Virus record (IMG/VR): IMGVR_UViG_3300026549_000138
DNA length: 42,274 nt
From: a virus
Direction: 5' to 3' (one strand)
Numbering within the stretch: position 1 is the first letter of the stretch; each line of letters begins with the position of its first letter. A program made the translations under genes and the position numbers. Below are positions 1 through 42,274 of this stretch, in pieces. The notes beneath the pieces were generated by a model, which had not been told where the DNA came from, searched no databases, and saw only the letters and a program-made list of their open reading frames with translations.

Positions 1-127
1 TCGAGTGCGCCCCGTCTCAGCATTTATTTCTTAATCTTCAAACTTTAATCTTTAACCTTTGCACCCGTCGCAAGACGGGTGCATTAAACAAAAGCAAGAA
101 AGCAAATGGGTAATCAATTGAAATTGG
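1..127. repeat. Terminal direct duplication (identical to 42148-42274); circular-assembly overlap
   Basis: By-eye comparison shows tcgagtgcgccccgtctcagcatttatttctt...gggtaatcaattgaaattgg at both ends. It contains the VR2 3' end, the target stop codon, the hairpin and the avd start. Confidence 0.9.
60..83 (+). promoter_or_regulatory. GC-rich hairpin downstream of VR2 (duplicate copy of 42207-42230); DGR target-recognition cruciform candidate
   Basis: tgcacccgtc-gcaa-gacgggtgca forms a 10-bp perfect stem with a GCAA (GNRA) tetraloop and has no trailing T-tract. Confidence 0.7.
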
Positions 128-504
128 TATCGAACACGCGCATCTATCTGGACGCACGGGCGTTGCTGGATGAGATATTGGATATTATGCCAAATTTCCC
201 ACGCGCCTATAAATTCAGTGTGGGTGCAAAGATGCAGGATTTGGGCATTGGCCTCATCGAGGACATTGCGGCAGCTTACATGGATAAGCCCAACAGATTG
301 CATCACCTCATCGTGTTTCAGACCAAATTTGAAACATTGAAAACCCTAATGCGTATTGCAGGAGAAAGGCAGTGGATTAAAGGCATGGGGCGGCACGCAC
401 ACATCATTGAACTAATGGACGCGATAGGCAAACAGAGTACAGCATGGAAAAACTCAATGACCGCCAAAAAGGGAGTTGAGCAAATGCCGGAATCGGAGAG
501 TTAA
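106..504 (+). CDS. avd: DGR accessory variability determinant (Avd), small basic helical-bundle protein
   Basis: The 132-aa ORF sits directly between the VR-bearing target gene and TR/RT. Its size, helical and basic composition and synteny match Avd. Confidence 0.8.
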   Translation: MGNQLKLVSNTRIYLDARALLDEILDIMPNFPRAYKFSVGAKMQDLGIGLIEDIAAAYMDKPNRLHHLIVFQTKFETLKTLMRIAGERQWIKGMGRHAHIIELMDAIGKQSTAWKNSMTAKKGVEQMPESES

Positions 505-593
505 GACAAACCGAGTGTGCAATCCGTAATAAATGGGCCGTGTACCGTCATTCACGGTTAAGAACAAGACAATACGGCACAGATTGGCGAGCC

Positions 594-698
594 ACCGAGT
601 ACAGCGCGACCAACGCATGGAATCTGAACCTCAACAACGGCAACATGAACAACAACACTAAGGCCACGAACACGAATCGAGTGCGCCCCGTCTCAGCA
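594..698 (+). repeat. DGR template repeat (TR), 105 bp, non-coding position between avd and RT
   Basis: It aligns without gaps to 11945-12049 and 42065-42169. It has 37 adenines and 11 Asn codons (9 AAC, 2 AAT) in the VR reading frame. Every mismatch to either VR is at a TR adenine. Confidence 0.93.
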
Positions 699-711
699 CT
701 ATTTACGGACA

Positions 712-1914
712 TTGCTTAAAAAGTATAAAGATATGGTAACAACGGATGGAATGTTAGAAGCGTATTACGATTGCCGCCGCAGGAAGCGGAGAACGGCAAG
801 CGCGATCGTGTATGAAATGAATTACGAAAGCAACCTGATTGCTTTGCGTGACCGTATCAACACGCGAACATACCAGCCGGGCAAATCTATCTGTTTTGTC
901 GTAACGCGCCCAAGGTATCGTGAAGTGTTTGCCGCCTCATTTGAAGATAGGATTGTGCATCATTACATCGGTTTGCGTTTAGAGCCGTTGTTTGAGTTGG
1001 TGTTTAGTCCACGGACATTCAATTGCAGGAAAGGCAAAGGGCAGTTGTATGGTGTGAAGATGCTGGAGGCCGATATTAAGGAAGCCAGCAACAATTACAC
1101 CACCGACTGTTACATCATGAAATTGGATTTGCAAGGTTTCTTTATGAGCATTGACAAATCCATGTTGGCACGGATGATTGATAAGTTCATCGTGAAGTAT
1201 TACCAGGGCAGCGACATTGACGATTTGCGCTACCTTTGCCAAATCGTAGTGCTGCATTGCCCAGAGCAGAATTGTGAAAGACACAGCCCACGCGAAATGT
1301 GGGAACACCTACCAGCCAACAAATCCCTTTTCACCAATGGGGAGGGCAAAGGTGTGGCCATCGGGAATCTGTTTGCACAGTTGTTTGCCAATTTTCTTTT
1401 GAACATTCTGGATTGGTACATCGAGGAATTGGGCATAAAGTACCACGGGCGATATGTGGATGATTTTTATTGCATCCACACCGACAAAAAGGTGCTGTTG
1501 AGCGCAGTACCAAAAATCCGCGTTAAGTTAGCGGAATTGGGGTTGAGCCTCAACCCGAAAAAATTTTATTTCCAACATTACACCAAGGGTGTTGAGTTTA
1601 CGGGCGCAGTCGTTAAGCCATATCGGACGTATTGTTGCAACAGAGTATTGACCAACTTTATTGCAGCCGTCAGGAAACTCAACAGGGCCAGGAACATTGA
1701 CGAAGTAAACCACGCTGTTTGCTCCATCAACTCATATTTGGGATTGCTCAGACAGTCCAATGAGTACGGCAAGCGACGCGAGATATTGGGCATGATTGCC
1801 CCACGTATTTACAAATGGATTTACATAAAAGGCCATTACGAAGTTGTGGCCATCAAAAACAAGTATAAACAAAATTGCATTACTCAAAAACGCATAAGGG
1901 ATGGCGATTATTGA
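712..1914 (+). CDS. DGR reverse transcriptase
   Basis: RT motifs are present: LDLQGFFMSID, GVAIGNLFAQLFANF (DGR-type IGxxxSQ-like motif, here AQ), GRYVDDFY (YxDD), LNPKK and GVEFTGAVV. The ORF-track start at 712 is TTG; the first ATG is at 733. Confidence 0.92.
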   Translation: MLKKYKDMVTTDGMLEAYYDCRRRKRRTASAIVYEMNYESNLIALRDRINTRTYQPGKSICFVVTRPRYREVFAASFEDRIVHHYIGLRLEPLFELVFSPRTFNCRKGKGQLYGVKMLEADIKEASNNYTTDCYIMKLDLQGFFMSIDKSMLARMIDKFIVKYYQGSDIDDLRYLCQIVVLHCPEQNCERHSPREMWEHLPANKSLFTNGEGKGVAIGNLFAQLFANFLLNILDWYIEELGIKYHGRYVDDFYCIHTDKKVLLSAVPKIRVKLAELGLSLNPKKFYFQHYTKGVEFTGAVVKPYRTYCCNRVLTNFIAAVRKLNRARNIDEVNHAVCSINSYLGLLRQSNEYGKRREILGMIAPRIYKWIYIKGHYEVVAIKNKYKQNCITQKRIRDGDY

Positions 1915-2065
1915 AGTTGAACCGAAAGACCCGATTACATTGCGCGTTGATGTGATTGATATGGGTTTGCTGCATCTGTTAGAAACGAGATATGTGGTAC
2001 TGATAGAACAACGCGAAAACGATATTGTAATTGAACTTTATACAAAGGAACATGGAGACAGTTAG
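1901..2065 (+). CDS. Hypothetical 54-aa protein overlapping the RT stop (below the ORF-track cutoff)
   Basis: My own translation gives ATG at 1901, MAIIEVEPKDPITLRVDVIDMGLLHLLETRYVVLIEQRENDIVIELYTKEHGDS, stop at 2063-2065. It overlaps the RT 3' end by 14 nt and fills an otherwise non-coding gap. Confidence 0.3.
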   Translation: MAIIEVEPKDPITLRVDVIDMGLLHLLETRYVVLIEQRENDIVIELYTKEHGDS

Positions 2066-2393
2066 CGTTATTGAGATTGTTGCAACCATTATCGGAACAA
2101 TGGGAGGATGGGAGGCCATCAAGTACCTTTTGAACCGAAAGACCAACAAGCGAAAAGAAGAGGCCGAGGCCGATGGTGTGGAATTTGGAGTTTTGCGCGA
2201 CAGCATGGAGTTTTTGCAAAACCAACTCAAAGAGAAAGAGGAAAGGTTTGTCAACCAGACAGACCGATTGCGTAAGTTGCAAGATGATTATTTTGAGTTG
2301 CTGAAAGAAAAACAACGTATTGAATTGGAATTGCAGCGTTTTCGATGTGTGCGCCCTAAGTGCGCCCAGAGAGAACCACAAAACGGATATTAA
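2052..2393 (+). CDS. Putative holin or lysis-associated membrane protein (N-terminal TM helix plus coiled coil)
   Basis: The TM-like segment VSVIEIVATIIGTMGGW is followed by a charged coiled-coil region. It lies immediately upstream of the endolysin. I preferred the ATG at 2052 over the TTG at 2031. Confidence 0.45.
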   Translation: METVSVIEIVATIIGTMGGWEAIKYLLNRKTNKRKEEAEADGVEFGVLRDSMEFLQNQLKEKEERFVNQTDRLRKLQDDYFELLKEKQRIELELQRFRCVRPKCAQREPQNGY

Positions 2394-2404
2394 AAACTGA
2401 AAGT

Positions 2405-2983
2405 ATGGCAAAAGTTGAAAGCATCGTGCCGTTTATCCTGAAATGGGAAACAGGCACAACGGGCATTGGTTTGACCAATGAGCAATTGTTTGAGAAAGCC
2501 AAGTTGAAAGGGTTTGCCAATGACCCCGACGATTTGGGAGGTGCAACCATGTGTGGCGTGACATTGGCCACGTTCACGGAGTATTGCCGTCGGAAAGGCT
2601 ACCCACGGCCAACCATTGTGAGGCTGAAAGCCATTAAATACAAAGAATGGTTGGAAATACTAAAGACCATGTTTTGGGATAAATGGAAAGCCGACCAGAT
2701 TAACAACGAATCCATCGCCCTCATATTGGTTGATTGGGTTTGGGGCAGCGGCAAATATGGCATCACCATCCCACAAAAAGCAATTGGCGTGACAGCCGAC
2801 GGCATTGTTGGCCCCAAGACGATTGCCGCCGTCAATGCCAAAGACCCCAAGCAACTGTTTGACCTCATCAGGAAAGAACGGTTGGCCTACATCGAGAGAA
2901 TTTGCAGAAGCCGACCAACCAATTTGAAGTACAAAAGAGGTTGGTTGAATCGGTTAAACGACATCAAATTTAAGGGAGTATGA
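2405..2983 (+). CDS. Endolysin, GH108-type muramidase with C-terminal peptidoglycan-binding (PG_binding_3-like) domain
   Basis: ILKWETG...NDPDDLGGATMCGVT matches the GH108 signature. ADGIVGPKTIAAVN is PG-binding-like. The ATG at 2405 (MAKVES) avoids overlap with the upstream ORF. Confidence 0.8.
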   Translation: MAKVESIVPFILKWETGTTGIGLTNEQLFEKAKLKGFANDPDDLGGATMCGVTLATFTEYCRRKGYPRPTIVRLKAIKYKEWLEILKTMFWDKWKADQINNESIALILVDWVWGSGKYGITIPQKAIGVTADGIVGPKTIAAVNAKDPKQLFDLIRKERLAYIERICRSRPTNLKYKRGWLNRLNDIKFKGV

Positions 2984-3492
2984 AGCAGCTTATTTTCATT
3001 ATTCTGGCCGCGCTCATGCTGATTGGGTGCAGAGCCAAACAGACTGTCATTAAGGAGAACACCACGGCCAGCCTCATTGACACCACACACACCGTGGCCG
3101 ACACGATGAGCGCAGTATCAAATTACACCGACACCACCACGGCCACCCAGCACGTCGAGCAATCGGCCACGATCGAGTTTGTGGATGGTGGCGGTACGGT
3201 CAGCATTGACACGGCAGGAAACGTGACCATGCAGGGCGTGAAATCCATTAAAGGCATGGGCAAGGCCGACGTTACCATCAAAAACGGAGTGGCAGAGCGT
3301 GACAGCATATCAGCCAGCCACACCGACCAGGCAAACGGCATCAATAAGAACGAGAGCAAGCAGCGAGAGACCGAGGAAAAGGTAAGTAAGGCCGTGCAAT
3401 GGTACGAAAGGCCGTTAATATGGATTGGCTCATTGTGCTGCATTGCCGTGTTGCTTTATATCCTATTTATATACATCAAGGCTAAACATTGA
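2980..3492 (+). CDS. Lipoprotein with C-terminal TM anchor; unimolecular-spanin-like lysis protein
   Basis: The N-terminal signal with lipobox is MKQLIFIILAALMLIGC. The C-terminal TM is PLIWIGSLCCIAVLLYILFIYI. Its start overlaps the endolysin stop (ATGA). Confidence 0.55.
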   Translation: MKQLIFIILAALMLIGCRAKQTVIKENTTASLIDTTHTVADTMSAVSNYTDTTTATQHVEQSATIEFVDGGGTVSIDTAGNVTMQGVKSIKGMGKADVTIKNGVAERDSISASHTDQANGINKNESKQRETEEKVSKAVQWYERPLIWIGSLCCIAVLLYILFIYIKAKH

Positions 3493-3532
3493 TTTTGTAC
3501 ATATCTGTAAAAGTGCGACGAAAGTTGTTGAG

Positions 3533-3568
3533 ACCGTGCCAACCCGTGAGGGCCAGCACGGTTTTTTA
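3533..3568 (+). terminator. Intrinsic terminator at the end of the lysis operon, between convergent genes
   Basis: The accgtgc...gcacggt 7-bp stem has an inner ccc-gtga-ggg stem-loop and is followed by T6. It overlaps the integrase stop codon. Confidence 0.6.
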
Positions 3569-4789
3569 TTTGCCTAACAGATAGTCAATTACACGTCGGT
3601 TTGCGGCATCTATTTTGTCGAGGGAAAATTTGATGTAAACGCCCGTGATGGCAGAGCCGTATTTGTGGCCAAGGGCCTCAGATATGGTGTCTTTTGGTAT
3701 ATCCAATTCAGCGGCATACGTCGCCCATGAGTAACGCGCCCAATACGACGTGATTTGTGGCTCAATCGGCTGCATCATGGGCAAATGGTTGTCGGTGTAC
3801 TGAGGTTTGCCGTTGGCATCCGTCTGGATTGGCCCCATGCGCCTGAGTGCTTTATTGAGGTGCTGCATATAGTCTTTATAACTTTTGTATCTGTCAAAGC
3901 AGCGTAGGAGGTGTTTTTGGCCACGGTACTTTTCAATGATTGCCGCCGCCTCATCTTCAACTTTGATGGAATAGAGTTTGCCCGTTTTTGCACGTCGGTA
4001 CTCAATGCGGCCATTCACGTAATTGTCAGAGGTGAGGCCACCCATATCTACCATGTTAATGCCGATAAGGTAAAACGAGAGTAAGAACATATCCCGATGC
4101 TCCAAGTCAGATTTGCCCAGAGGCAGGGCCAGGAGTTCACGGAACTTTGCCAATGGCAGCACCCTCATGGCCGTTTCTTCCTTTGGTATGCGGAAATTGC
4201 GGAATGGGTAGTTTTGCGTTATCCCATCATCCACGGCAAAGTTTATGACGTTGCGGAGATTGCGTAAGTGCATTGCCCGGCTATTGACTGACAATTTATC
4301 CATCGAAGCGTAAAAGCCCGTGAGCCACGTTTTGTTTATCGTCTCAAAACGCACGGCATTGGCATCCCCACAGAAAGCATTTACTTTGTTCAATGTTTGC
4401 TCAAAGAGTGTGCGAGTGCCGCCCGTTTTCGTATCAATGACCTTTTGGAACATTGCCCCCAGAGTTGGCACACCGATGGTTGGTGCTGACAAATCAAGGT
4501 GGGTGAGCATTTCCCGAAGTTGGGCCGGTGTCAGTTTGTCGTATTGCCCCATCATGCGCAACTCCAAAATGCGGTTTGATACCTGAGTGAGCAAGGCCGA
4601 CAGTACACCATTGACCCGTTTGGCATTTTTGCCCACACAGCGTTTGGCCGTGGCATCCCATTCATCGGGTGCAAGAAATATGCCCGTGGCCAGATAGAGG
4701 TTAGTGCCGTAGCCGACACAGATTTGGACGGGAAACGTGCCATCTTTTAATGCCCGTCGAGTATCGAGGCGAAGATTTGATTTTGCCAT
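3566..4789 (-). CDS. int: Tyrosine recombinase / phage integrase (Bacteroidota type)
   Basis: 407 aa. C-terminal catalytic-domain motifs are YRRAKTGK, WARYSWATYA and LGHKYGSAITGVYIKF. The N-terminal region is arm-binding/SAM-like. Confidence 0.88.
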   Translation of the reverse strand: MAKSNLRLDTRRALKDGTFPVQICVGYGTNLYLATGIFLAPDEWDATAKRCVGKNAKRVNGVLSALLTQVSNRILELRMMGQYDKLTPAQLREMLTHLDLSAPTIGVPTLGAMFQKVIDTKTGGTRTLFEQTLNKVNAFCGDANAVRFETINKTWLTGFYASMDKLSVNSRAMHLRNLRNVINFAVDDGITQNYPFRNFRIPKEETAMRVLPLAKFRELLALPLGKSDLEHRDMFLLSFYLIGINMVDMGGLTSDNYVNGRIEYRRAKTGKLYSIKVEDEAAAIIEKYRGQKHLLRCFDRYKSYKDYMQHLNKALRRMGPIQTDANGKPQYTDNHLPMMQPIEPQITSYWARYSWATYAAELDIPKDTISEALGHKYGSAITGVYIKFSLDKIDAANRRVIDYLLGK

Positions 4790-6935: not shown

Positions 6936-7517
6936 ATGAAAACAGATTTTAGCGTACACATTCATGTGGATTTAGGCGTAACGCCTGAATTGGTGGCATT
7001 GGTTAATGCCGTCATTGACCACAGACCGATGCCGACCGTTGAGGCCCCGAAGCCCGAACCGTCAGCAAGTGAGCAACCAGAAGCCGCCGCCCCTGCAAAG
7101 AAGCGTGGCCGTAAAGCAGCAACAGCCGAAGCACCAGCCCCAGAGGTTGAAGCCCCAGAGGTAGAAGCCCCGGCAGAAGAGGCAGCACCAGAACCCGAAC
7201 CAGAGGCAGAGGCCGAAGCCCCAGCCGAGGCAGAACCCAAGGAACTGACAGAGCAGGACATCCGCGATGCCATGCACCGAACCCGTCAGCGTATCGAGGG
7301 CGAGAACTACAAAGACGAGACGGATGGAGAACTTTATAAGAAGTACCACCGCCAACTGACATCGTGGTTTAAGAACACAGCCGCTTTGTTAGGCTCAGAC
7401 AAGCCGTCAGCCCTCATTACAGAAAAGGGCCAGGATGAGGCACGACAATTCATTGAAGAGTGTGACCGTCTGGAAGTATTGGAAGATGGCACAATCGGAA
7501 TTAAAGAGGCATTTTGA
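6936..7517 (+). CDS. Hypothetical protein with Pro/Glu/Ala-rich linker and KKRGRK basic patch
   Basis: 193 aa. The low-complexity core is APEVEAPEVEAPAEEAAPEPEPEAEAEAPAEAEP. The C-terminal domain is helical. Confidence 0.6.
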   Translation: MKTDFSVHIHVDLGVTPELVALVNAVIDHRPMPTVEAPKPEPSASEQPEAAAPAKKRGRKAATAEAPAPEVEAPEVEAPAEEAAPEPEPEAEAEAPAEAEPKELTEQDIRDAMHRTRQRIEGENYKDETDGELYKKYHRQLTSWFKNTAALLGSDKPSALITEKGQDEARQFIEECDRLEVLEDGTIGIKEAF

Positions 7518-8705: not shown

Positions 8706-9293
8706 ATGATGAAACCAAACATTTTGCCCAAGAACGACGGGCGTACAGTTGTAATCGGCCCGTGCCGATTGAGTTACACACATCTTTTCGAGAAGTACAC
8801 CGGCCCCGATGGTGACGAAAGCCGTGCCAAGTATCAAACGGGCATACTCATCCCGAAGAGCCAGAAAGAGACGGTTGAAGCCCTCAAAGGCTGCATCAAA
8901 GCCGCCTACGACCAAGCCATTACAAAGTATTGGGGAGGTAAGAAACCGAAGATTGACGAAACATCGGATGCCTACCCATTGCGTGATGGTGAGGGCAAGG
9001 ATGATGAAGCCTACCAGGGCCACGTTTACATCAACGCCAAGACAGGCAAGAAACCCAGCGTGACCGACCGAAGCGGCCAGCCCATCATTGATGAGGATGA
9101 GATTTACAGCGGTGTGTGGGCATGGGTGTGTGTCACATTCTATGGCTACAAGGTCAATGGTAAGTGTGGCATTGCAGCAGCTTTGGAGGCCGTGCGTAAG
9201 TGCAAGGACGATGAGCAGTTTGGCGGCAGCGTCAGCCAGAGCGAGGCATTTGGCAATATCCCGATGGATGATGAAGATGATGAGGATTTGTAA
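8706..9293 (+). CDS. ssDNA-binding protein (DUF2815-like) with acidic C-terminal tail
   Basis: 195 aa. The C-terminus is IPMDDEDDEDL, and the gene lies between the nuclease and the polymerase. Confidence 0.65.
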   Translation: MMKPNILPKNDGRTVVIGPCRLSYTHLFEKYTGPDGDESRAKYQTGILIPKSQKETVEALKGCIKAAYDQAITKYWGGKKPKIDETSDAYPLRDGEGKDDEAYQGHVYINAKTGKKPSVTDRSGQPIIDEDEIYSGVWAWVCVTFYGYKVNGKCGIAAALEAVRKCKDDEQFGGSVSQSEAFGNIPMDDEDDEDL

Positions 9294-9388: not shown

Positions 9389-11341
9389 ATGAAAGAATTA
9401 GGAATTGACATCGAGACGTACAGCAGCAACGATTTGGCCGATTGCGGAGTTTACAAATACGTTGAAGCCCCTGATTTCACGATATTGCTTTTTGCATACA
9501 GCGTGGATGGTGGCCCCGTCGTATGTGTGGATTTGGCGCAGGGTGAAGAATTGCCAGCCGATGTTATGGCAGCACTCACAGACCCATCCGTTACAAAGAC
9601 AGCGTTTAACGCTGCATTTGAGCGTATTTGCATCAGCAAGTGGATGGGATTGTCAAAGCCATTGCCAGCCTCACAATGGAAATGCACGATGGTACGTGCA
9701 GCCCGTATGGGTTTGCCGTTGTCATTGGGGCAATGTGGTGAGGTGCTGAAATTGGCCGATGGTAAGATGAAAGAGGGCAAAATCCTAATCCGTTATTTCT
9801 CCATCCCGGCCAAGAACGGCAAGCGGCATTTACCAAGCGACGCGCCCGACCGTTGGGAGGTATTCAAAAAGTACAATATCAGAGACGTGGAGGTTGAGCA
9901 ACAGATTTTGGCCAAGGTGCGCCGTCTGGAGGCCCCTGCATTTGACGATGAGTTGTACATTGCCGACCAAGAAATCAATGACCGTGGCGTGATGATTGAT
10001 TTGCCATTGGTTGAGGCCGCTGCAAGGTTTGACGATGAGTTTAAGGCCGAGTTGCTGCAAGAGGCAAAGACCATAAGCGGATTGGAGAACCCCAACAGCC
10101 CAGCCCAATTGAAAGACTACATTTCCAAGGTTACGGGCATGACCGTGGCCAGCCTCAACAAAAAGAATCTGGATGAGTTGGACGGCCAATTAAAGTATTG
10201 GCCAAAGGCTCAGAAGATTTTGGCATTGCGCCGTGAAATGGGTAAGACCAGCAATAAGAAGTATGCAGCCATGTTGAAATGCGTTTGCAATGATGGCCGT
10301 ATTCACGGACTTTTGCAGTTTTGCGGTGCAGCACGTACAGGCAGATGGGCAGGCCGATTGGTGCAGGTGCAGAACCTACCACAGAACCATTTGGAAAGTC
10401 TGGACGATGCCCGTTATTTGGTACGTCAGGGTGATTTGACAGAGTTTGAAATGAATTATGCCAACGTCACCTATGTACTCAGTGAGTTAATCCGCACAGC
10501 GTTTATTGCAGCACCAGGCCACACGTTTCATGTGTGCGACTTTTCAGCCATTGAGTGCCGTGTGATTGCATGGTTGGCAGGTGAGCAATGGGTGTTGGAC
10601 GTATTCCGGCAGGGTGGCGACATCTATTGTGCCACGGCAAGCCAGATGTTTAACAAGCCCGTTGAGAAGCACGGCCAAAATGCTGAGTTGAGGCAGAAAG
10701 GCAAGATTGCAACATTGGCATTGGGATATGGTGGCGGTGTGTCTGCATTGGAGGCAATGGGTGGCAAGCGTTTAGGTTTGACAGAATCTGAAGAAAAGGA
10801 AATCGTGAATCTTTGGCGTAATTCCAACCCCAAAATTGTGAAGATGTGGGCCACGATCGAGAAAGCTGCCATTACAGCCCTAAAGACGGGTAAGACCGTA
10901 CCCGTACATCGTGGCATTGAGATTGGCAAGCGATGGGGGATGCTGACAATAACATTGCCGTCTGGCCGTGTTATCTGTTACCCCAGAGCAAATGTTGGCA
11001 TTGAATATGGCGACGGATGGCGTGGCGACCACGAAATTATTGAGTATGAGGGTTTGAACCAGACCACCAAGAAATGGGGCAACGTCAGAACGTATGGCGG
11101 CAAACTCACAGAGAACATTGTGCAAGCCATTGCCCGTGACATATTGGGCATTGTCATTCTGAGGGCCAGGCAACAGCACCTCAACGTGGTTTTCCATATC
11201 CATGACGAAATTATTGTTGAAGCAACGCCCGACCAGACGTTGGCCGACGTGGAGGCACTGTTTAGCACCCCGATTGATTGGTGTGCGGATTTACCCCTCA
11301 AAGGTGCAGGTTACACCACACCTTATTATTTGAAAGATTAG
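9389..11341 (+). CDS. Family A DNA polymerase with 3'-5' exonuclease domain
   Basis: Exo I is GIDIETYS, motif A is DFSAIECRVIAW, motif B is RQKGKIATLALGYGGG and motif C is HIHDEIIVE. Confidence 0.9.
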   Translation: MKELGIDIETYSSNDLADCGVYKYVEAPDFTILLFAYSVDGGPVVCVDLAQGEELPADVMAALTDPSVTKTAFNAAFERICISKWMGLSKPLPASQWKCTMVRAARMGLPLSLGQCGEVLKLADGKMKEGKILIRYFSIPAKNGKRHLPSDAPDRWEVFKKYNIRDVEVEQQILAKVRRLEAPAFDDELYIADQEINDRGVMIDLPLVEAAARFDDEFKAELLQEAKTISGLENPNSPAQLKDYISKVTGMTVASLNKKNLDELDGQLKYWPKAQKILALRREMGKTSNKKYAAMLKCVCNDGRIHGLLQFCGAARTGRWAGRLVQVQNLPQNHLESLDDARYLVRQGDLTEFEMNYANVTYVLSELIRTAFIAAPGHTFHVCDFSAIECRVIAWLAGEQWVLDVFRQGGDIYCATASQMFNKPVEKHGQNAELRQKGKIATLALGYGGGVSALEAMGGKRLGLTESEEKEIVNLWRNSNPKIVKMWATIEKAAITALKTGKTVPVHRGIEIGKRWGMLTITLPSGRVICYPRANVGIEYGDGWRGDHEIIEYEGLNQTTKKWGNVRTYGGKLTENIVQAIARDILGIVILRARQQHLNVVFHIHDEIIVEATPDQTLADVEALFSTPIDWCADLPLKGAGYTTPYYLKD

Positions 11342-11368: not shown

Positions 11369-12061
11369 ATGACAGAGAATCAGAAACTAAAGATGGAACT
11401 TTTGAAAGAGTTTGCCATCAGTGACGAACCAAAGAGCATCGAGGTTTGCCGTGAAATGTACAAATTCATGGTAGAAGATGAGGCCCCGACCCCATCAATA
11501 CCGACAAATGGCAAACACCCAAAGGATGGTGTTTACTACATTTGCGACGATGAGAATAAGACCATTGTGCCGTATAAGGCCACGTTGACACCCCCAGAGG
11601 ATGCAATGGGTGTTTTGTTGGTGCAGGGTGAGCGCAGTATCATTATTGCACTCCGAGATTGCAACGATGGCGAGGAAACGACGTTGACCAAGCAGAAAGA
11701 CCCGTCGAACCTCAAAGGCAACTACATTGACACCTGCATTGATGCCGTGGCCGATTGGAACGGCCAGAAGAACACCGAACATCTAAAGGCCGTCGGACTG
11801 TCTGACAATATCAGCCTGAGCGATGGTTGGTACATTCCAAGCATGGGTGAAATGCTGTTTATCTTCACACATCGTAAGGAGGTCAATGCAGCATTGAAGA
11901 AAGCAGGTGGCCAGCCCATTGCCGATGATTGGTATTGGACTTCGACCGAGTACAGCGCGACCCACGCATGGCCTCTGTACCTCAACTACGGCAGCATGTA
12001 CTACACCACTAAGGCCACGGGCACGCATCGAGTGCGCCCCGTCTCAGCATTTATTTCTTAA
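11369..12061 (+). CDS. DGR target protein 1 (DUF1566/FGE-sulfatase-type C-type-lectin-like fold), VR1 at the C-terminus
   Basis: The C-terminus is GWYIPSMGEMLFIF...WYWTSTEYSATHAWPLYLNYGSMYYTTKATGTHRVRPVSAFIS. It is paralogous over most of its length to the 41417-42181 product. Confidence 0.88.
   Translation: MTENQKLKMELLKEFAISDEPKSIEVCREMYKFMVEDEAPTPSIPTNGKHPKDGVYYICDDENKTIVPYKATLTPPEDAMGVLLVQGERSIIIALRDCNDGEETTLTKQKDPSNLKGNYIDTCIDAVADWNGQKNTEHLKAVGLSDNISLSDGWYIPSMGEMLFIFTHRKEVNAALKKAGGQPIADDWYWTSTEYSATHAWPLYLNYGSMYYTTKATGTHRVRPVSAFIS
11945..12049 (+). repeat. DGR variable repeat VR1
   Basis: It is 105 bp with 12 mismatches to the TR, all at TR adenines (TR index 19, 28, 29, 34, 43, 50, 55, 58, 62, 76, 77, 82). 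The 3' segment cgagtgcgccccgtctcagca is invariant. Confidence 0.93.
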
Positions 12062-12080
12062 TCTTCAAACTTTAATCTTT

Positions 12081-12100
12081 GGCACGGCGAAAGCCGTGCC
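12081..12100 (+). promoter_or_regulatory. GC-rich hairpin downstream of VR1; DGR target-recognition cruciform candidate
   Basis: ggcacggc-gaaa-gccgtgcc forms an 8-bp perfect stem with a GAAA tetraloop, 19 nt after the stop codon, with no T-tract. Confidence 0.7.
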
Positions 12101-36607: not shown

Positions 36608-37768
36608 ATGAAAACAAGAAGATTTGATTTTAACTTTAAGCCGTTGCAGGTTAGCCGCACGATTGCGGTTGATGGCAGCGTACCGGCCCGACAGACGTAT
36701 GATGCCGAATCGGGATTGTTTACGCCTGATTACACCCTCACGCCCCTCATTATCCAACCGCGAATCGGGCGCATGGATAAGGACGAGATTTTGACATCGG
36801 GCAGCATTAACCATCTTTTGGCCAATGTGCGTTGGTATGAGATTATTGATGGTACTAAGACCCTCATTGAGACTACCAATGCCGATTATGAGATTACGGC
36901 AAGCGGAAAAGATGCCGGACGTATTAAGGTAAAAAAGAACGCAGAGCCTCAGCACCCGATTACGCTGGAGTTTTATGCCGAGTACACTGACAGCCGTACA
37001 GGGCAGTTGTACGTCATTCAAGACACATTCCCCATCATGTGCAGGAACTCCACGGCATTGCCTGAGTTGTTTTTGGATGCCGCCGACCAAACCATTTATG
37101 ACCCCCTCATTGACGTGGCCGACCAGACCGTGACCGCCAGCCTTAAATTAGGTACAAAGGAGTGTGCAGTGGATAACCGCCTTTTCGTGTGGGAACTGTT
37201 ACGCGACGATGGCACATGGTCAGTGGTAGGCGCAGAGCCAGCATTGGATTATTGCATTGACGTGGCCGCCGATGGCCTCAGTGCTGTTGTGCATCGTGAC
37301 CTCATGGGCGAATCATTGGCGTTGCGTTGCAGGGCGAAATATGACCCAGAGGGCAACCCAGCAACCATTACGCTCAACGATGGAAGCCCCTGCAAGGTGG
37401 TGGAGTTTGTGCGTCGAATCCACAAGTATGATTTTGACATCGTAGATTGCCCCGTGAATATCCCCAGCGGAATGTTGGCTATTGCCCCACGCGCATCTAT
37501 TTATGACACTCACGGAGAGATTACCAACCCCGAAAGGGAATTGATCGTACTTTGGTACGTGGCCACGAATAAGGCCAGCGGCGCATTGTCGTACAGCCTC
37601 ATTGCCCACGGCCAAGAGCCGGATATGTTACCCACGTCAGCCATGAACGCCCAATTTGGTGCAGTGTATGGCATTGACGTTAAGGACATCGGCCCCGTGG
37701 CTGCATGGGAAGATGGCGACGGCAAGTTGTTCGAAGATGGCGATGGAAATATTATTTTAATTCACTAA
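36608..37768 (+). CDS. Hypothetical tail-module protein
   Basis: It is a 386-aa ORF in the tail module. Confidence 0.5.
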   Translation: MKTRRFDFNFKPLQVSRTIAVDGSVPARQTYDAESGLFTPDYTLTPLIIQPRIGRMDKDEILTSGSINHLLANVRWYEIIDGTKTLIETTNADYEITASGKDAGRIKVKKNAEPQHPITLEFYAEYTDSRTGQLYVIQDTFPIMCRNSTALPELFLDAADQTIYDPLIDVADQTVTASLKLGTKECAVDNRLFVWELLRDDGTWSVVGAEPALDYCIDVAADGLSAVVHRDLMGESLALRCRAKYDPEGNPATITLNDGSPCKVVEFVRRIHKYDFDIVDCPVNIPSGMLAIAPRASIYDTHGEITNPERELIVLWYVATNKASGALSYSLIAHGQEPDMLPTSAMNAQFGAVYGIDVKDIGPVAAWEDGDGKLFEDGDGNIILIH

Positions 37769-37782
37769 AAAATATCGAGATT

Positions 37783-38244
37783 ATGGCACGTTACATTAAA
37801 GCAAATCCGAAAGTTGCAAGTTATTTGCATCTGGAAAATGACCGTCTGAAACTGAAAGATGGTAATTACATTCTTTGGCAGGGCGATATGACCGCATTTG
37901 GCCCATTGCCTATGCTCAACGAGACACTAACGCAGATTGGCGGCATTGCCCTCATGCCCCATGAGGCCAAGCAAGAGCAGGATGGCACGTACAACCGACC
38001 TTTGCCCGTGGCCACCGATGAGCGTTTTATCATGGATGAGGCCAAGGCAGACCCCGAACATCAGACAGACGATGAGGCAGAAGCCGTGACCGATGAAAAC
38101 GGAGAGGGCCAGGCCCCAGCAGCCGCCAGCACCGAAGAGCCGACAGACGATGAGGGCGATGGCGATACCGACGAAGAGCCAGCCGAAGCGGAAGCCGAGG
38201 CCGAGAGTGAGACAACCGAATCTGAAAACCCCGAAACAGAATAA
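37783..38244 (+). CDS. Hypothetical protein with a highly acidic C-terminal tail
   Basis: I preferred the ATG at 37783 (MARYIKANPK). The C-terminus is TDDEGDGDTDEEPAEAEAEAESETTESENPETE. Confidence 0.5.
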   Translation: MARYIKANPKVASYLHLENDRLKLKDGNYILWQGDMTAFGPLPMLNETLTQIGGIALMPHEAKQEQDGTYNRPLPVATDERFIMDEAKADPEHQTDDEAEAVTDENGEGQAPAAASTEEPTDDEGDGDTDEEPAEAEAEAESETTESENPETE

Positions 38245-41416: not shown

Positions 41417-42181
41417 ATGGCAAAACAGACAAAGAAACTGACAGCCCAAACAACTGTTACGACTGTCACATCGGCACAGAAATTTCCAATGACTGATGCC
41501 AACGGCAATGTAACCCTGATTACATTGGCCAATCTGAAAGCCGCTTTAATGGGTGGCCTCAACCTCAATTCGCTGGAGGATGGCGTGTTTATCATGTGCC
41601 ATCGTAAGCAAGACGATTACCCCATCATGTACAAACCACACAAGTGGACGGCACAGCAAAACGCCGGAGAGGTGGCCGACGGTGTTGTGGTAGTCGAGGG
41701 TGGCCATGTGTTAGTCGTGGCCCCGACGGAAAGCGCAACCAAACTTAATTGGGGCAGTGCCAACGTGGCAGGTGGCGGTGTGACTACCAGCAACCGCGAA
41801 ACCGCTTACAGCGATTTTGCAGGTAAGGCGAACACGGCCAGCCAAATCACCCATACCGAAATGAGCGGTGAGGGCTATGCCCCCGGCTTCTGCCATGCTT
41901 ACAGCCGCGTGAACGCCAACGGCAAGGGTTTGACCGCTGGCAAATGGTGGTTGCCATCGTTGGGCGAAATGATGATGATTTATGCCAACATGACAAAAAT
42001 CAATTATGCTTTGTCGCTCATTGAGGGTGCAACGCAGTTGGTGGAAGATGCCTATTGGACTTCGACCGAGTACAGCGCGGCCAACGCATGGCTTCTGAAC
42101 CTCAACTACGGCGGCATGTACTACTACACTAAGGCCGCGAACACGTATCGAGTGCGCCCCGTCTCAGCATTTATTTCTTAA
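41417..42181 (+). CDS. DGR target protein 2 (DUF1566/FGE-type C-type-lectin-like fold), VR2 at the C-terminus; probable receptor-binding protein
   Basis: The C-terminus is KWWLPSLGEMMMIY...AYWTSTEYSAANAWLLNLNYGGMYYYTKAANTYRVRPVSAFIS. It is the last gene of the tail-fibre module and, via the circular junction, lies directly upstream of avd. Confidence 0.9.
   Translation: MAKQTKKLTAQTTVTTVTSAQKFPMTDANGNVTLITLANLKAALMGGLNLNSLEDGVFIMCHRKQDDYPIMYKPHKWTAQQNAGEVADGVVVVEGGHVLVVAPTESATKLNWGSANVAGGGVTTSNRETAYSDFAGKANTASQITHTEMSGEGYAPGFCHAYSRVNANGKGLTAGKWWLPSLGEMMMIYANMTKINYALSLIEGATQLVEDAYWTSTEYSAANAWLLNLNYGGMYYYTKAANTYRVRPVSAFIS
42065..42169 (+). repeat. DGR variable repeat VR2
   Basis: It is 105 bp with 11 mismatches to the TR, all at TR adenines (TR index 16, 28, 29, 43, 49, 50, 55, 58, 61, 73, 82). 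Confidence 0.93.
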
Positions 42182-42206
42182 TCTTCAAACTTTAATCTTT
42201 AACCTT

Positions 42207-42230
42207 TGCACCCGTCGCAAGACGGGTGCA
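42207..42230 (+). promoter_or_regulatory. GC-rich hairpin downstream of VR2; DGR target-recognition cruciform candidate
   Basis: tgcacccgtc-gcaa-gacgggtgca lies 25 nt after the stop codon. Confidence 0.7.
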
Positions 42231-42274
42231 TTAAACAAAAGCAAGAAAGCAAATGGGTAATCAATTGAAATTGG

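Follow-up and report, generated by a model that had tools for sequence, protein, structure and literature searches.

Does the region at the start of this viral DNA (positions 106–1914 of the window, by which we mean the whole 42,274-nucleotide stretch analysed) encode a complete diversity-generating retroelement (DGR), and has that element been at work recently? The initial annotation had called here, from the letters alone, a complete DGR core of avd, a 105-bp template repeat (TR) and a reverse transcriptase (RT). That call is borne out, every testable defining feature of such a core having been found, and we consider the region very probably to be a complete, recently active DGR carried by a Bacuni-like siphophage of Prevotella whose circular genome measures 42,147 bp. 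Four aspects were not mentioned at that stage: the adjacency of the VR2 target and avd on the circle, the flank and hairpin signals beside the VRs, the RNA structure around the TR and the published architecture of the Bacuni phages. All features described below lie on the + strand.

Reverse transcriptase and Avd

The avd gene (accessory variability determinant, 106–504) encodes the 132-residue Avd-like protein first recognized from its ORF. Its product passes the Pfam threshold for bAvd (82.8 bits, cutoff 40) and matches the PHROG 'Avd protein of DGR' (1.8e-16), falling under the stricter NCBIfam equivalog cutoff (40.8 vs 80). The RT had been placed at 712–1914 with YVDD and IGNLFAQ motifs; the ORF and both motifs are present as described, but the start differs, the conserved initiation codon being ATG 733 (invariant in 23 relatives) and not TTG 712, which is not invariant in those genomes. 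The resulting 393-residue protein (733–1914) matches RVT_1 and carries YVDD as its catalytic motif. Searching the PDB returns the Bordetella phage bRT as the closest solved relative (8ub7, E=1.4e-24), and bRT residues R74, I181, G182 and Q187 align with identical residues in the window RT. Membership of the DGR class is thus supported at the level of sequence. The IGNLFAQ motif, which has Ala where the canonical [LIV]GxxxSQ has Ser, is found in 89 of 99 family RTs, with IGNLFSQ in another 7.

Template repeat, VRs and recipient sites

The TR (594–698, 105 nt) contains 37 adenines and, in the VR reading frame, 11 Asn codons (nine AAC, two AAT), exactly as first counted. It had been described as non-coding; the coordinates are correct, yet the repeat sits within a mechanical in-frame ORF (540–719) whose Bacuni_F1 counterpart is annotated as a CDS. 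The companion proposal, that adenine mutagenesis of the TR makes no stop codons, is nearly true, the exception being AAG 660–662, which can become TAG.

VR1 (11945–12049) departs from the TR by 12 substitutions and VR2 (42065–42169) by 11. The annotated asymmetry is reproduced in full: all 23 mismatches fall at TR adenines and none at C, G or T. The hypergeometric chance of 12 and 11 mismatches all landing on the 37 adenines is 9.5e-7 x 3.4e-6 = 3.3e-12. Wherever the repeats vary, the TR has A, and there are no synonymous-type or non-A differences between TR and VRs in the window. Both VRs are in frame and end 4 codons short of the stop, VR2 forming the last 35 full codons ahead of the 4-codon tail of its target. 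A third VR was considered and rejected: the only extra copy of a VR 3′ end (2–22) is the terminal duplicate of the end of VR2.

An IMH-like flank of 31 nt, TTTATTTCTTAATCTTCAAACTTTAATCTTT, is identical 3′ of both VRs (12050–12080 at VR1, 42170–42200 at VR2), whereas the TR flank differs. GC-rich hairpins follow. That at VR1 (12081–12100, 31 nt 3′ of the repeat) has the form GGCACGGC GAAA GCCGTGCC; that at VR2 (42207–42230, 37 nt 3′; folding z=-2.9) has the form TGCACCCGTC GCAA GACGGGTGCA, and its bases are repeated at 60–83 in the terminal duplicate. Family-wide, such a hairpin accompanies 77 of 78 VRs as against 1 of 79 TRs, built from 14 different stems with loops that are mostly GAAA, GGTA or GCAA. 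In phage BPP-1 the required hairpin has a 7–10 bp GC stem, a 4-nt GRNA loop and a position 4–34 bp from the VR (PMC3240598); the features seen here match that element, save for the GCAA loop of VR2, and flank and hairpin together presumably act in homing. As to loop sequence, the published consensus is GRNA, which GCAA does not fit, and GTTT occurs in one relative. We also considered the VR hairpins as intrinsic terminators and rejected this, a terminator scan having called none there and neither hairpin being followed by a T-run.

Comparison between genomes gives the repeats a direction. Four near-identical relatives (L002, L003, L004 and a contig of Prevotella sp. P3-122) are 97–99% identical around the element and 85–95% over the tail and target genes. 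Their TR is invariant, and their VRs differ from it by 14, 15, 16 and 14 substitutions, respectively, in differing patterns. In one further lineage an extra AAC codon in the TR is mirrored by 108-nt VRs at both targets; its two contigs, L001 and L206, come from one sample and are assumed to represent a single genome. When the same-TR relatives are pooled with the window, the 108-nt lineage, L200 and L207, adenines account for 140 of the 142 substitutions, which leaves 2 at other bases. More broadly, 77 of 80 IMG/VR relatives hold a TR/VR pair in the order target–avd–TR–RT, with 1152 of 1262 substitutions at A. Most of these loci end just short of the position expected for the remote (VR1) target, 11.2 kb from the RT, and a query with the N-terminal part of that target recovered close relatives only.

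At the protein level, 31 orthologues of at least 90% identity, used as a proxy for a population, confine hypervariability to the 11 Asn-codon columns, each of which samples 7–12 residue types, against at most 4 in columns outside the VR. Since the TR stays identical while VRs are rewritten across samples, and since a TR indel reappears in the VRs, information apparently passes one way, from TR to VR, in an element that has apparently been active of late. These comparative data are unusually direct for evidence drawn from sequence only.

Might the repeats instead be ordinary diverging paralogues, or products of gene conversion, among two lectin-like genes and a pseudogene fragment, with the RT unrelated to them? 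The targets are indeed paralogues (58% identical over the C-terminal 78 residues), and the in-frame pseudo-ORF holding the TR resembles a target C terminus. Such drift would have had to place 23 of 23 differences on 37 of 105 positions (p about 3e-12), leave no synonymous-type or non-A change, keep the TR all-A at variable sites and repeat the pattern in 77 of 80 relatives, beside an Avd gene and a bRT-like RT that flank the TR. The initial annotation held the asymmetry to be beyond ordinary repeat divergence; we agree, regard this explanation as effectively refuted already and attach next to no probability to it. We find it just as hard to credit an RT of some other class, be it group II intron, retron or Abi/DRT defence, whose system the repeats would serve. 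The top-named NCBIfam match is a group II intron RT/maturase, and PADLOC returns DRT and retron matches that are generic or weak. These scores lie far under the curated cutoffs (71 bits vs 300 for the group II model, 33 vs 235 for another NCBIfam match), and no group II, retron or DRT model in NCBIfam or PADLOC reaches its cutoff; NCBIfam is without a DGR-RT model, and we reject its group II label as the class of this RT. In the PDB search, bRT leads the other solved relatives by 20 orders of magnitude (group II intron RT, E=4e-4; a chain deposited as retron-type RT, E=5e-4). No Rfam family, intron RNA and msr/msd included, is found in the window, and the Avd and TR/VR context is diagnostic. 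On these scores the RT resembles bRT and not the group II, retron or Abi enzymes that the initial annotation had named as the alternative.

A third explanation accepts the DGR and disputes its activity: the parts would be intact, homing would have ceased, and the VR differences would be frozen and inherited vertically. In its favour, all the evidence for activity is comparative, between samples, and the GCAA loop of VR2 departs from a consensus that is critical in BPP-1. It has to reconcile genomes 97–99% identical at the element, with identical TRs, with VR patterns that are wholly different, and against it RT, Avd, TR and target signals are all intact. Bacuni isolates that are 99.8% identical differ almost only in their VRs (PMC8143477), and the Bacuni VRs that vary include one followed by a GCAA-loop hairpin. 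We judge a fossil element to be very improbable, and proceed with a DGR that has been recently active.

RNA structure around the template repeat

A covarying RNA structure brackets the TR, most of it upstream of the repeat. Its outermost element, P1, is a long-range duplex of 7–8 bp that joins sequence 65 nt upstream of the TR to sequence 5 nt downstream. The 5′ strand (519–529) consists of the core TCCGTAA (523–529) preceded by a GCAA extension (519–522); the 3′ strand (703–715) consists of TTACGGA (703–709), a CA bulge and TTGC (712–715), such that 523–529 pairs with 703–709 and 519–522 with 712–715. The GCAA extension is specific to the window. P1 emerged unaided from RNAalifold, shows compensatory changes in 7 of 8 pairs, and has a 3′ strand that adjoins the TR and is absent from the VR flanks.

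Inside P1, a conserved AAATGGG (531–537, of which the AATGGG portion is invariant) precedes a covarying two-tier hairpin (537–578), in which P2 pairs 537–543 with 572–578 and P3 pairs 544–548 with 554–558. The hairpin carries a conserved 13-nt internal loop, TAAGAACAAGACA. A search of IMG/VR for its sequence pattern gives 106 stretches; of 100 that were fetched, 95 have an RT lying 195–214 nt downstream, and the remaining 5 are truncated. Over the whole bracketing structure, 88% of cells are paired, where slid controls give 33–44%; compensatory change is seen at 18 of 20 pairs, and none of 500 shuffles reaches the observed values. The structure is absent from Rfam, where a gathering scan of the whole window and an E-value scan of 400–1000 gave nothing relevant. 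Duplex folding across 23 relatives, in search of a template:primer duplex, gave the TR 3′ end no partner at a consistent site, and the first 120 nt of the RT ORF hold no convincing conserved structure.

These elements suggest a route for diversification. The avd–TR–RT transcript would fold such that the 523–529/703–709 duplex closes the TR into a loop beside the upstream hairpin. A complex of RT and Avd would then reverse-transcribe the TR, misincorporating opposite template adenines, and the cDNA would take the place of the 105 homologous nucleotides that lie at the 3′ end of each of the two Lcl_C/DUF1566 genes, where the common 31-nt flank and a 4-nt-loop GC hairpin would mark the recipient site. 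We infer both the RNA intermediate and the priming step. Each target could thereby take on as many as about 2e19 protein sequences (the product of per-codon options), mostly through the 11 Asn-templated positions.

BPP-1 (mtd–avd–TR–brt) offers the natural comparison. The two systems share the order target–avd–TR–RT, adenine mutagenesis, a VR at the C terminus of a receptor-binding protein with a lectin fold (both properties putative for the window), a 4-nt-loop GC hairpin beside an IMH-type flank and, as predicted here from covariation, a duplex joining sequences upstream and downstream of the TR, and bRT is the closest solved homologue of the window RT. They differ in the number of targets (one in BPP-1, two here), in the target domain (Lcl_C/DUF1566 here, not Mtd) and in the (GC)14 tract, which is missing from the window. 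The BPP-1 TR is 134 nt long and is followed by a 140-nt spacer holding Avd-binding, primer, stop and RT-binding RNA elements, whereas the window has a TR–RT gap of 34 nt and its covarying hairpin upstream of the TR. It is possible, although we would sooner bet against it, that the accessory DGR RNA of this family has a different layout from that of BPP-1, with the 34-nt gap replacing the 140-nt spacer, a putative structured protein-binding element upstream and the 7–8 bp duplex looping out the TR. Were this so, priming or termination of the cDNA might use a strand located upstream, and such RNAs would escape surveys whose scan reaches no further than 40 nt upstream of a TR. The structure supplies testable constraints on how DGR ribonucleoproteins are built when no long spacer follows the TR.

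Phage kinship and the two target proteins

Positions 1–127 are identical to 42148–42274; the contig is circular and the window a circularly permuted copy. On the circle, this terminal repeat therefore puts the VR2 target directly upstream of avd. We take this Bacuni-like siphophage to be temperate; no tRNAs were found in the window.

Bacuni phages F1, F2 and F4 (MT635598) of Bacteroides uniformis have the same two-target architecture, which is correlated with host range (PMC8143477). They share with the window the order tail genes, DUF1566 target, avd, TR, RT, lysis genes and integrase, with DNA polA and then a second DUF1566 target further on. Both targets of these phages carry at the 3′ end a 35-codon VR with adenine-only changes, each VR is followed by a GC hairpin whose loop is GAAA or GCAA, and the same RNA elements lie upstream, the upstream hairpin being expanded in Bacuni. 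Collinear Bacuni_F1 homologues exist for 24 of the 29 window ORFs tested, at 38–82% amino acid identity (RT 65%, Avd 62%, targets 70% for the proximal one and 40%). There is no megablast-level DNA similarity, a search with positions 1–2100 having given no match among GenBank phages; relatives of that region were recovered at the protein level only. In gene content and order the window phage agrees with the Bacuni-like phages, a provisional genus of Hedzet et al. 2021, but the missing DNA-level match makes it a relative of Bacuni_F1 from another species, with Prevotella as host genus in place of Bacteroides.

Closer still is the prophage of Prevotella sp. P3-122 (NZ_NPJH01000046), listed as a Bacuni relative by Hedzet et al. 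2021 (PMC8143477). Its RT is 99% identical and its TR identical to ours, within 4.9 kb of 97.8% DNA identity that takes in avd, the TR, the RT, the lysis genes and the integrase. WP_094400963, the DUF1566 protein of this prophage, belongs to a 90% cluster, and the representative of that cluster shares 93% identity with the window target. The upstream tail and target region is only 85% identical, VR2 carries another set of 14 substitutions (13 at A, 1 at T), and this copy is integrated in a chromosome contig where ours is a circular contig. Given the synteny with Bacuni and the near-identical RT and identical TR of P3-122, the element is of an already known kind, an ordinary relative of the published Bacuni system and not a new one. 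It leaves the current understanding of DGRs unchanged. What it adds is a clean, complete two-target phage DGR for Prevotella. Few phages of this genus, which is dominant in gut and rumen, have been characterised, and a cultured lysogen, P3-122, is available for experiments.

Both targets score barely over the Pfam Lcl_C cutoff of 34.9 bits. The proximal target (41417–42181, 254 residues, Lcl_C/DUF1566) reaches 36.4 bits and closes the tail and tail-fibre module; the 693-residue protein encoded upstream of it matches tail-fibre and host-specificity PHROGs. From its domain assignment the target family is C-type-lectin-like, with a putative lectin fold: sequence and family-profile searches of the PDB give only weak matches (8q4e and 4eps), and an AlphaFold2 model of the VR2 target from a 54-sequence alignment has a mean pLDDT of 61, dropping below 50 over residues 213–254, across the VR. 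The proximal target, at the end of the tail-fibre module, most likely sets host adsorption specificity, presumably as a receptor-binding protein.

The remote target (11369–12061, 230 residues, Lcl_C/DUF1566, 36.2 bits) has the gene for DNA polymerase A on one side and that for a DNA methyltransferase on the other. As it is conserved in the replication gene block and not among the virion genes, it may be something other than a tail protein; the second target of Bacuni_F1 is placed likewise.

DGR components and the adenine pattern

Its parts, adenine pattern and relatives support the initial annotation's reading of avd, template repeat and reverse transcriptase (RT) as a complete core, and the element is a complete, two-target diversity-generating retroelement (DGR), apparently active. 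A repeat finder returned one three-copy family in the window (573–729, 11924–12080 and 42044–42200). The 105-nt template repeat core (TR, 594–698) and the variable repeats VR1 (11945–12049) and VR2 (42065–42169) all lie on the plus strand. A recount of the TR gave the same 37 adenines and, read in the frame that both targets use, 11 Asn codons (nine AAC, two AAT). VR1 and VR2 carry 12 and 11 mismatches to the TR, every one at a TR adenine as had been claimed (chance of all landing on the 37 A positions, ~3e-12). These 23 substitutions fall at codon position 1 (17) and position 2 (six), yielding T (10), G (seven) or C (six). The proposal that the codon design avoids stops is nearly correct, the exception being AAG at 660–662, which could mutate to TAG. 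A mechanical 59-aa ORF (540–719), putative as a coding sequence, contains the TR in frame and reads like a target C terminus. Its equivalent in the Bacteroides uniformis phage Bacuni_F1 carries a CDS annotation, 'putative DUF1566 domain protein'.

The avd gene (106–504, plus strand, 132 aa) scores 82.8 bits against Pfam bAvd (threshold 40); the PHROG family 'Avd protein of DGR' matches it too, and its score for the stricter NCBIfam equivalog is under the cutoff. RYVDDFY and AIGNLFAQLFAN both occur in the RT ORF, which ends at 1914; both genes, including the YVDD and IGNLFAQ motifs, are present as initially described. The RT start is most likely ATG 733, giving 393 aa, because this ATG is invariant in 23 diverse relatives and TTG 712 is not. 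Searches with this RVT_1-domain protein do not point to a group II intron, retron or Abi RT: the best solved relative is bRT of the Bordetella phage bRT–Avd–RNA cryo-EM structures (E=1.4e-24), versus 4e-4 for a group II intron RT and 5e-4 for a chain deposited as a retron-type RT, and no group II, retron or DRT model came near its cutoff. R74, I181, G182 and Q187 of bRT, reported to contact the template and the incoming nucleotide, align to identical residues. Most DGR RTs have Ser where IGNLFAQ has Ala; within the family of relatives of this RT, IGNLFAQ occurs in 89/99 and IGNLFSQ in 7/99. Both target proteins contain Lcl_C (formerly DUF1566), scoring just over the Pfam cutoff, and their paralogy is confined to the C-terminal 78 residues (58% identity).

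Genome geometry and lineage

The contig is circular with a unit of 42,147 bp, because positions 1–127 are repeated exactly at 42148–42274. The same terminal duplication accounts for a 21-mer at 2–22 that looks like a further VR 3′ end and is the duplicated end of VR2. On the circle, the proximal target (41417–42181, containing VR2) ends 71 nt ahead of the avd start, and the order is therefore the canonical target–avd–TR–RT, plus a remote second target (11369–12061, containing VR1). Tape-measure, tail and tail-fibre-like genes precede the proximal gene; the remote one, among replication genes, has DNA polymerase A on one side and a DNA methyltransferase on the other. Directly following the RT, at 1901–4789, a 54-aa ORF overlapping the RT stop leads a series that continues with a holin-like membrane protein, an endolysin (GH108, with PG_binding_3), a protein with a lipobox and, on the minus strand, an integrase of Bacteroidota type carrying Arm-DNA-bind_5 and Phage_int_SAM_5. 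This marks the phage as temperate. Short imperfect repeats at 7116–7224 (inside ORF 6936–7517) and 38032–38204 (inside ORF 37705–38244) encode Ala/Pro/Glu-rich and Asp/Glu-rich stretches of low complexity and have no connection with the DGR.

Among cultured phages, the nearest relatives are Bacuni F1, F2 and F4 of B. uniformis (RT identity 64–69%), whose DGR has two DUF1566 targets, one adjoining avd–TR–RT and one distant; there the VR takes up the final 35 codons, only adenines change, and host range correlates with the VR differences (PMC8143477). Bacuni_F1 has the same annotated gene order as the window, including a DUF1566 gene after DNA polymerase A, and collinear homologues of 24/29 window ORFs (38–82% identity). 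The Bacuni VR flanks and upstream RNA likewise show the features of the window's. GenBank phages gave no DNA-level match. A Prevotella sp. P3-122 prophage has been named as a Bacuni relative sharing the DGR and target regions (PMC8143477), and this deposited genome, the only isolate genome with a close relative, contains an essentially identical DGR core. From the shared DGR design, gene order, collinear homologues and flank and RNA features, the comparison therefore places the window as a Prevotella member of this published phage and DGR lineage. Close phage relatives (L084, L086, L087, L091 and L094) also occur in gut samples, from sheep among others, within MAG bins that bear the labels Saccharibacteria, Elusimicrobia and Oribacterium; these are probably mis-binned phage contigs, not true hosts.

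Variation among relatives

Searching IMG/VR with the window RT gave 101 relatives. Three loci (L002, L003 and L004) are 97–99% identical to the window around the element and 89–95% over the tail and target genes. Their TR is identical to the window's; their VRs carry 16, 14 and 15 substitutions, respectively, in differing patterns and all at TR adenines. P3-122 has the same element (RT 99% identical, TR identical), with 14 substitutions in VR2 (13 at A, one at T). Further VR1 copies show 16 (locus L200, 15 at A) and eight (L207, all at A). Pooling the window and close relatives, 140/142 substitutions lie at A, bearing out, at the level of assemblies, the expected restriction of VR variation to TR-adenine positions.

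In locus L001 the TR (9859–9966) is 108 nt long, with one extra AAC codon. The proximal VR (9179–9286) is also 108 nt, as is the remote VR of this lineage (L205, L206); they carry 19 and 17 substitutions, respectively, all at A. It seems that the extra AAC was passed from the TR to both targets, assuming that L001 and L206, two contigs from one sample, are one genome.

At 90% identity the proximal target falls into two protein clusters (P0001 and P0003) with 165 and 40 distinct member sequences, an inflation caused by VR hypervariation; in a clustered protein database, such swelling could be an easy marker of DGR targets. Across 31 members, the 11 Asn-templated columns hold 7–12 residues each (entropy 2.2–3.2 bits). 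Other A-containing codons are less variable, the AAG lysine never varies, and columns outside the VR show at most four residue types (≤1.14 bits). Family-wide, a TR/VR pair is found in the same arrangement in 77/80 loci, and 1,152/1,262 substitutions are at A, the remainder mostly at ragged alignment ends.

Signals flanking the repeats

A 31-nt AT-rich flank is identical at both VRs (12050–12080 and 42170–42200), unlike the TR flank. Beyond it on the plus strand are perfect, GC-rich hairpins with 4-nt loops, GGCACGGC-GAAA-GCCGTGCC for VR1 (12081–12100) and TGCACCCGTC-GCAA-GACGGGTGCA for VR2 (42207–42230); neither is followed by a T-run or called by a terminator scan. Among IMG/VR relatives, 77/78 VRs have a similar hairpin 8–43 nt downstream (26–43 nt in all but one), built from 14 different stems with loops mostly GAAA, GGTA, GCAA or GGCA, versus only 1/79 TRs. 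These match the hairpin/cruciform element of Guo et al., required for homing in the prototype Bordetella phage BPP-1 and conserved in phage DGRs (7–10 bp GC stems, 4-nt GRNA loops, 4–34 bp from the VR; PMC3240598). The window VR2 loop, GCAA (42217–42220), differs in lying outside the GRNA consensus reported critical in BPP-1, as does the GTTT loop of L001, 37 nt downstream of the VR end at 9286. The VRs with these two loops are diversified all the same, and a Bacuni VR with a GCAA-loop hairpin differs among isolates.

The spacer between avd and the TR shows high conservation; from 23 diverse relatives, RNAalifold predicted two helices with no guidance. Three predicted plus-strand helices were then scored: P1 (523–529 with 703–709), a long-range duplex enclosing the entire TR, and P2 (537–543 with 572–578) and P3 (544–548 with 554–558), which make up a two-tier hairpin upstream. 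In window coordinates the whole covarying structure spans 519–578 and 703–715, bracketing the TR. Across P1–P3, 88% of cells are paired, versus 33–44% with slid partners, and 18/20 pairs show both-sided changes; 0/500 shuffles reached the observed values. Along with the helices go a conserved internal loop of 13 nt and an AATGGG that never varies and is extended to AAATGGG in at least 90% of members. A pattern of 21 specified bases from this element matched 106 IMG/VR stretches; 95 of the 100 loci fetched have an RT relative 195–214 nt downstream, and the other five end too near the match to tell. The predicted structure, for which Rfam gave no match, is thus tied to this DGR RT family.

Reverse transcription in BPP-1 requires a 'cPRT Stop' duplex between sequences on the two sides of the TR, and a 140-nt spacer on the downstream side holds all of the Avd-binding, primer and RT-binding elements; the survey by the same authors covered 40 nt on the upstream side and 100 nt on the downstream side (bioRxiv 10.1101/2023.10.23.563531). 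The window differs in having its structured element upstream, with the P1 5′ strand 65 nt upstream. Its TR-to-RT gap is 34 nt; hairpin comparison and RNAalifold gave no conserved hairpin after the TR, and a search for a consistent partner for the TR 3′ end (a would-be primer duplex) found none. By analogy, P1 plausibly corresponds to the Stop duplex, and P2/P3 could be a protein-binding stem-loop. The element is already known in kind; what is most novel may be its RNA layout, with an upstream hairpin, a long-range duplex and a minimal spacer after the TR, together with the position of the second target amid replication genes. In a subclade at 58% RT identity (L063, L064 and L065), the VR sits on the strand opposite to the RT and downstream of it (for example, L063 TR 9877–9983, VR 11471–11365), and the upstream RNA motif is retained despite this different layout.
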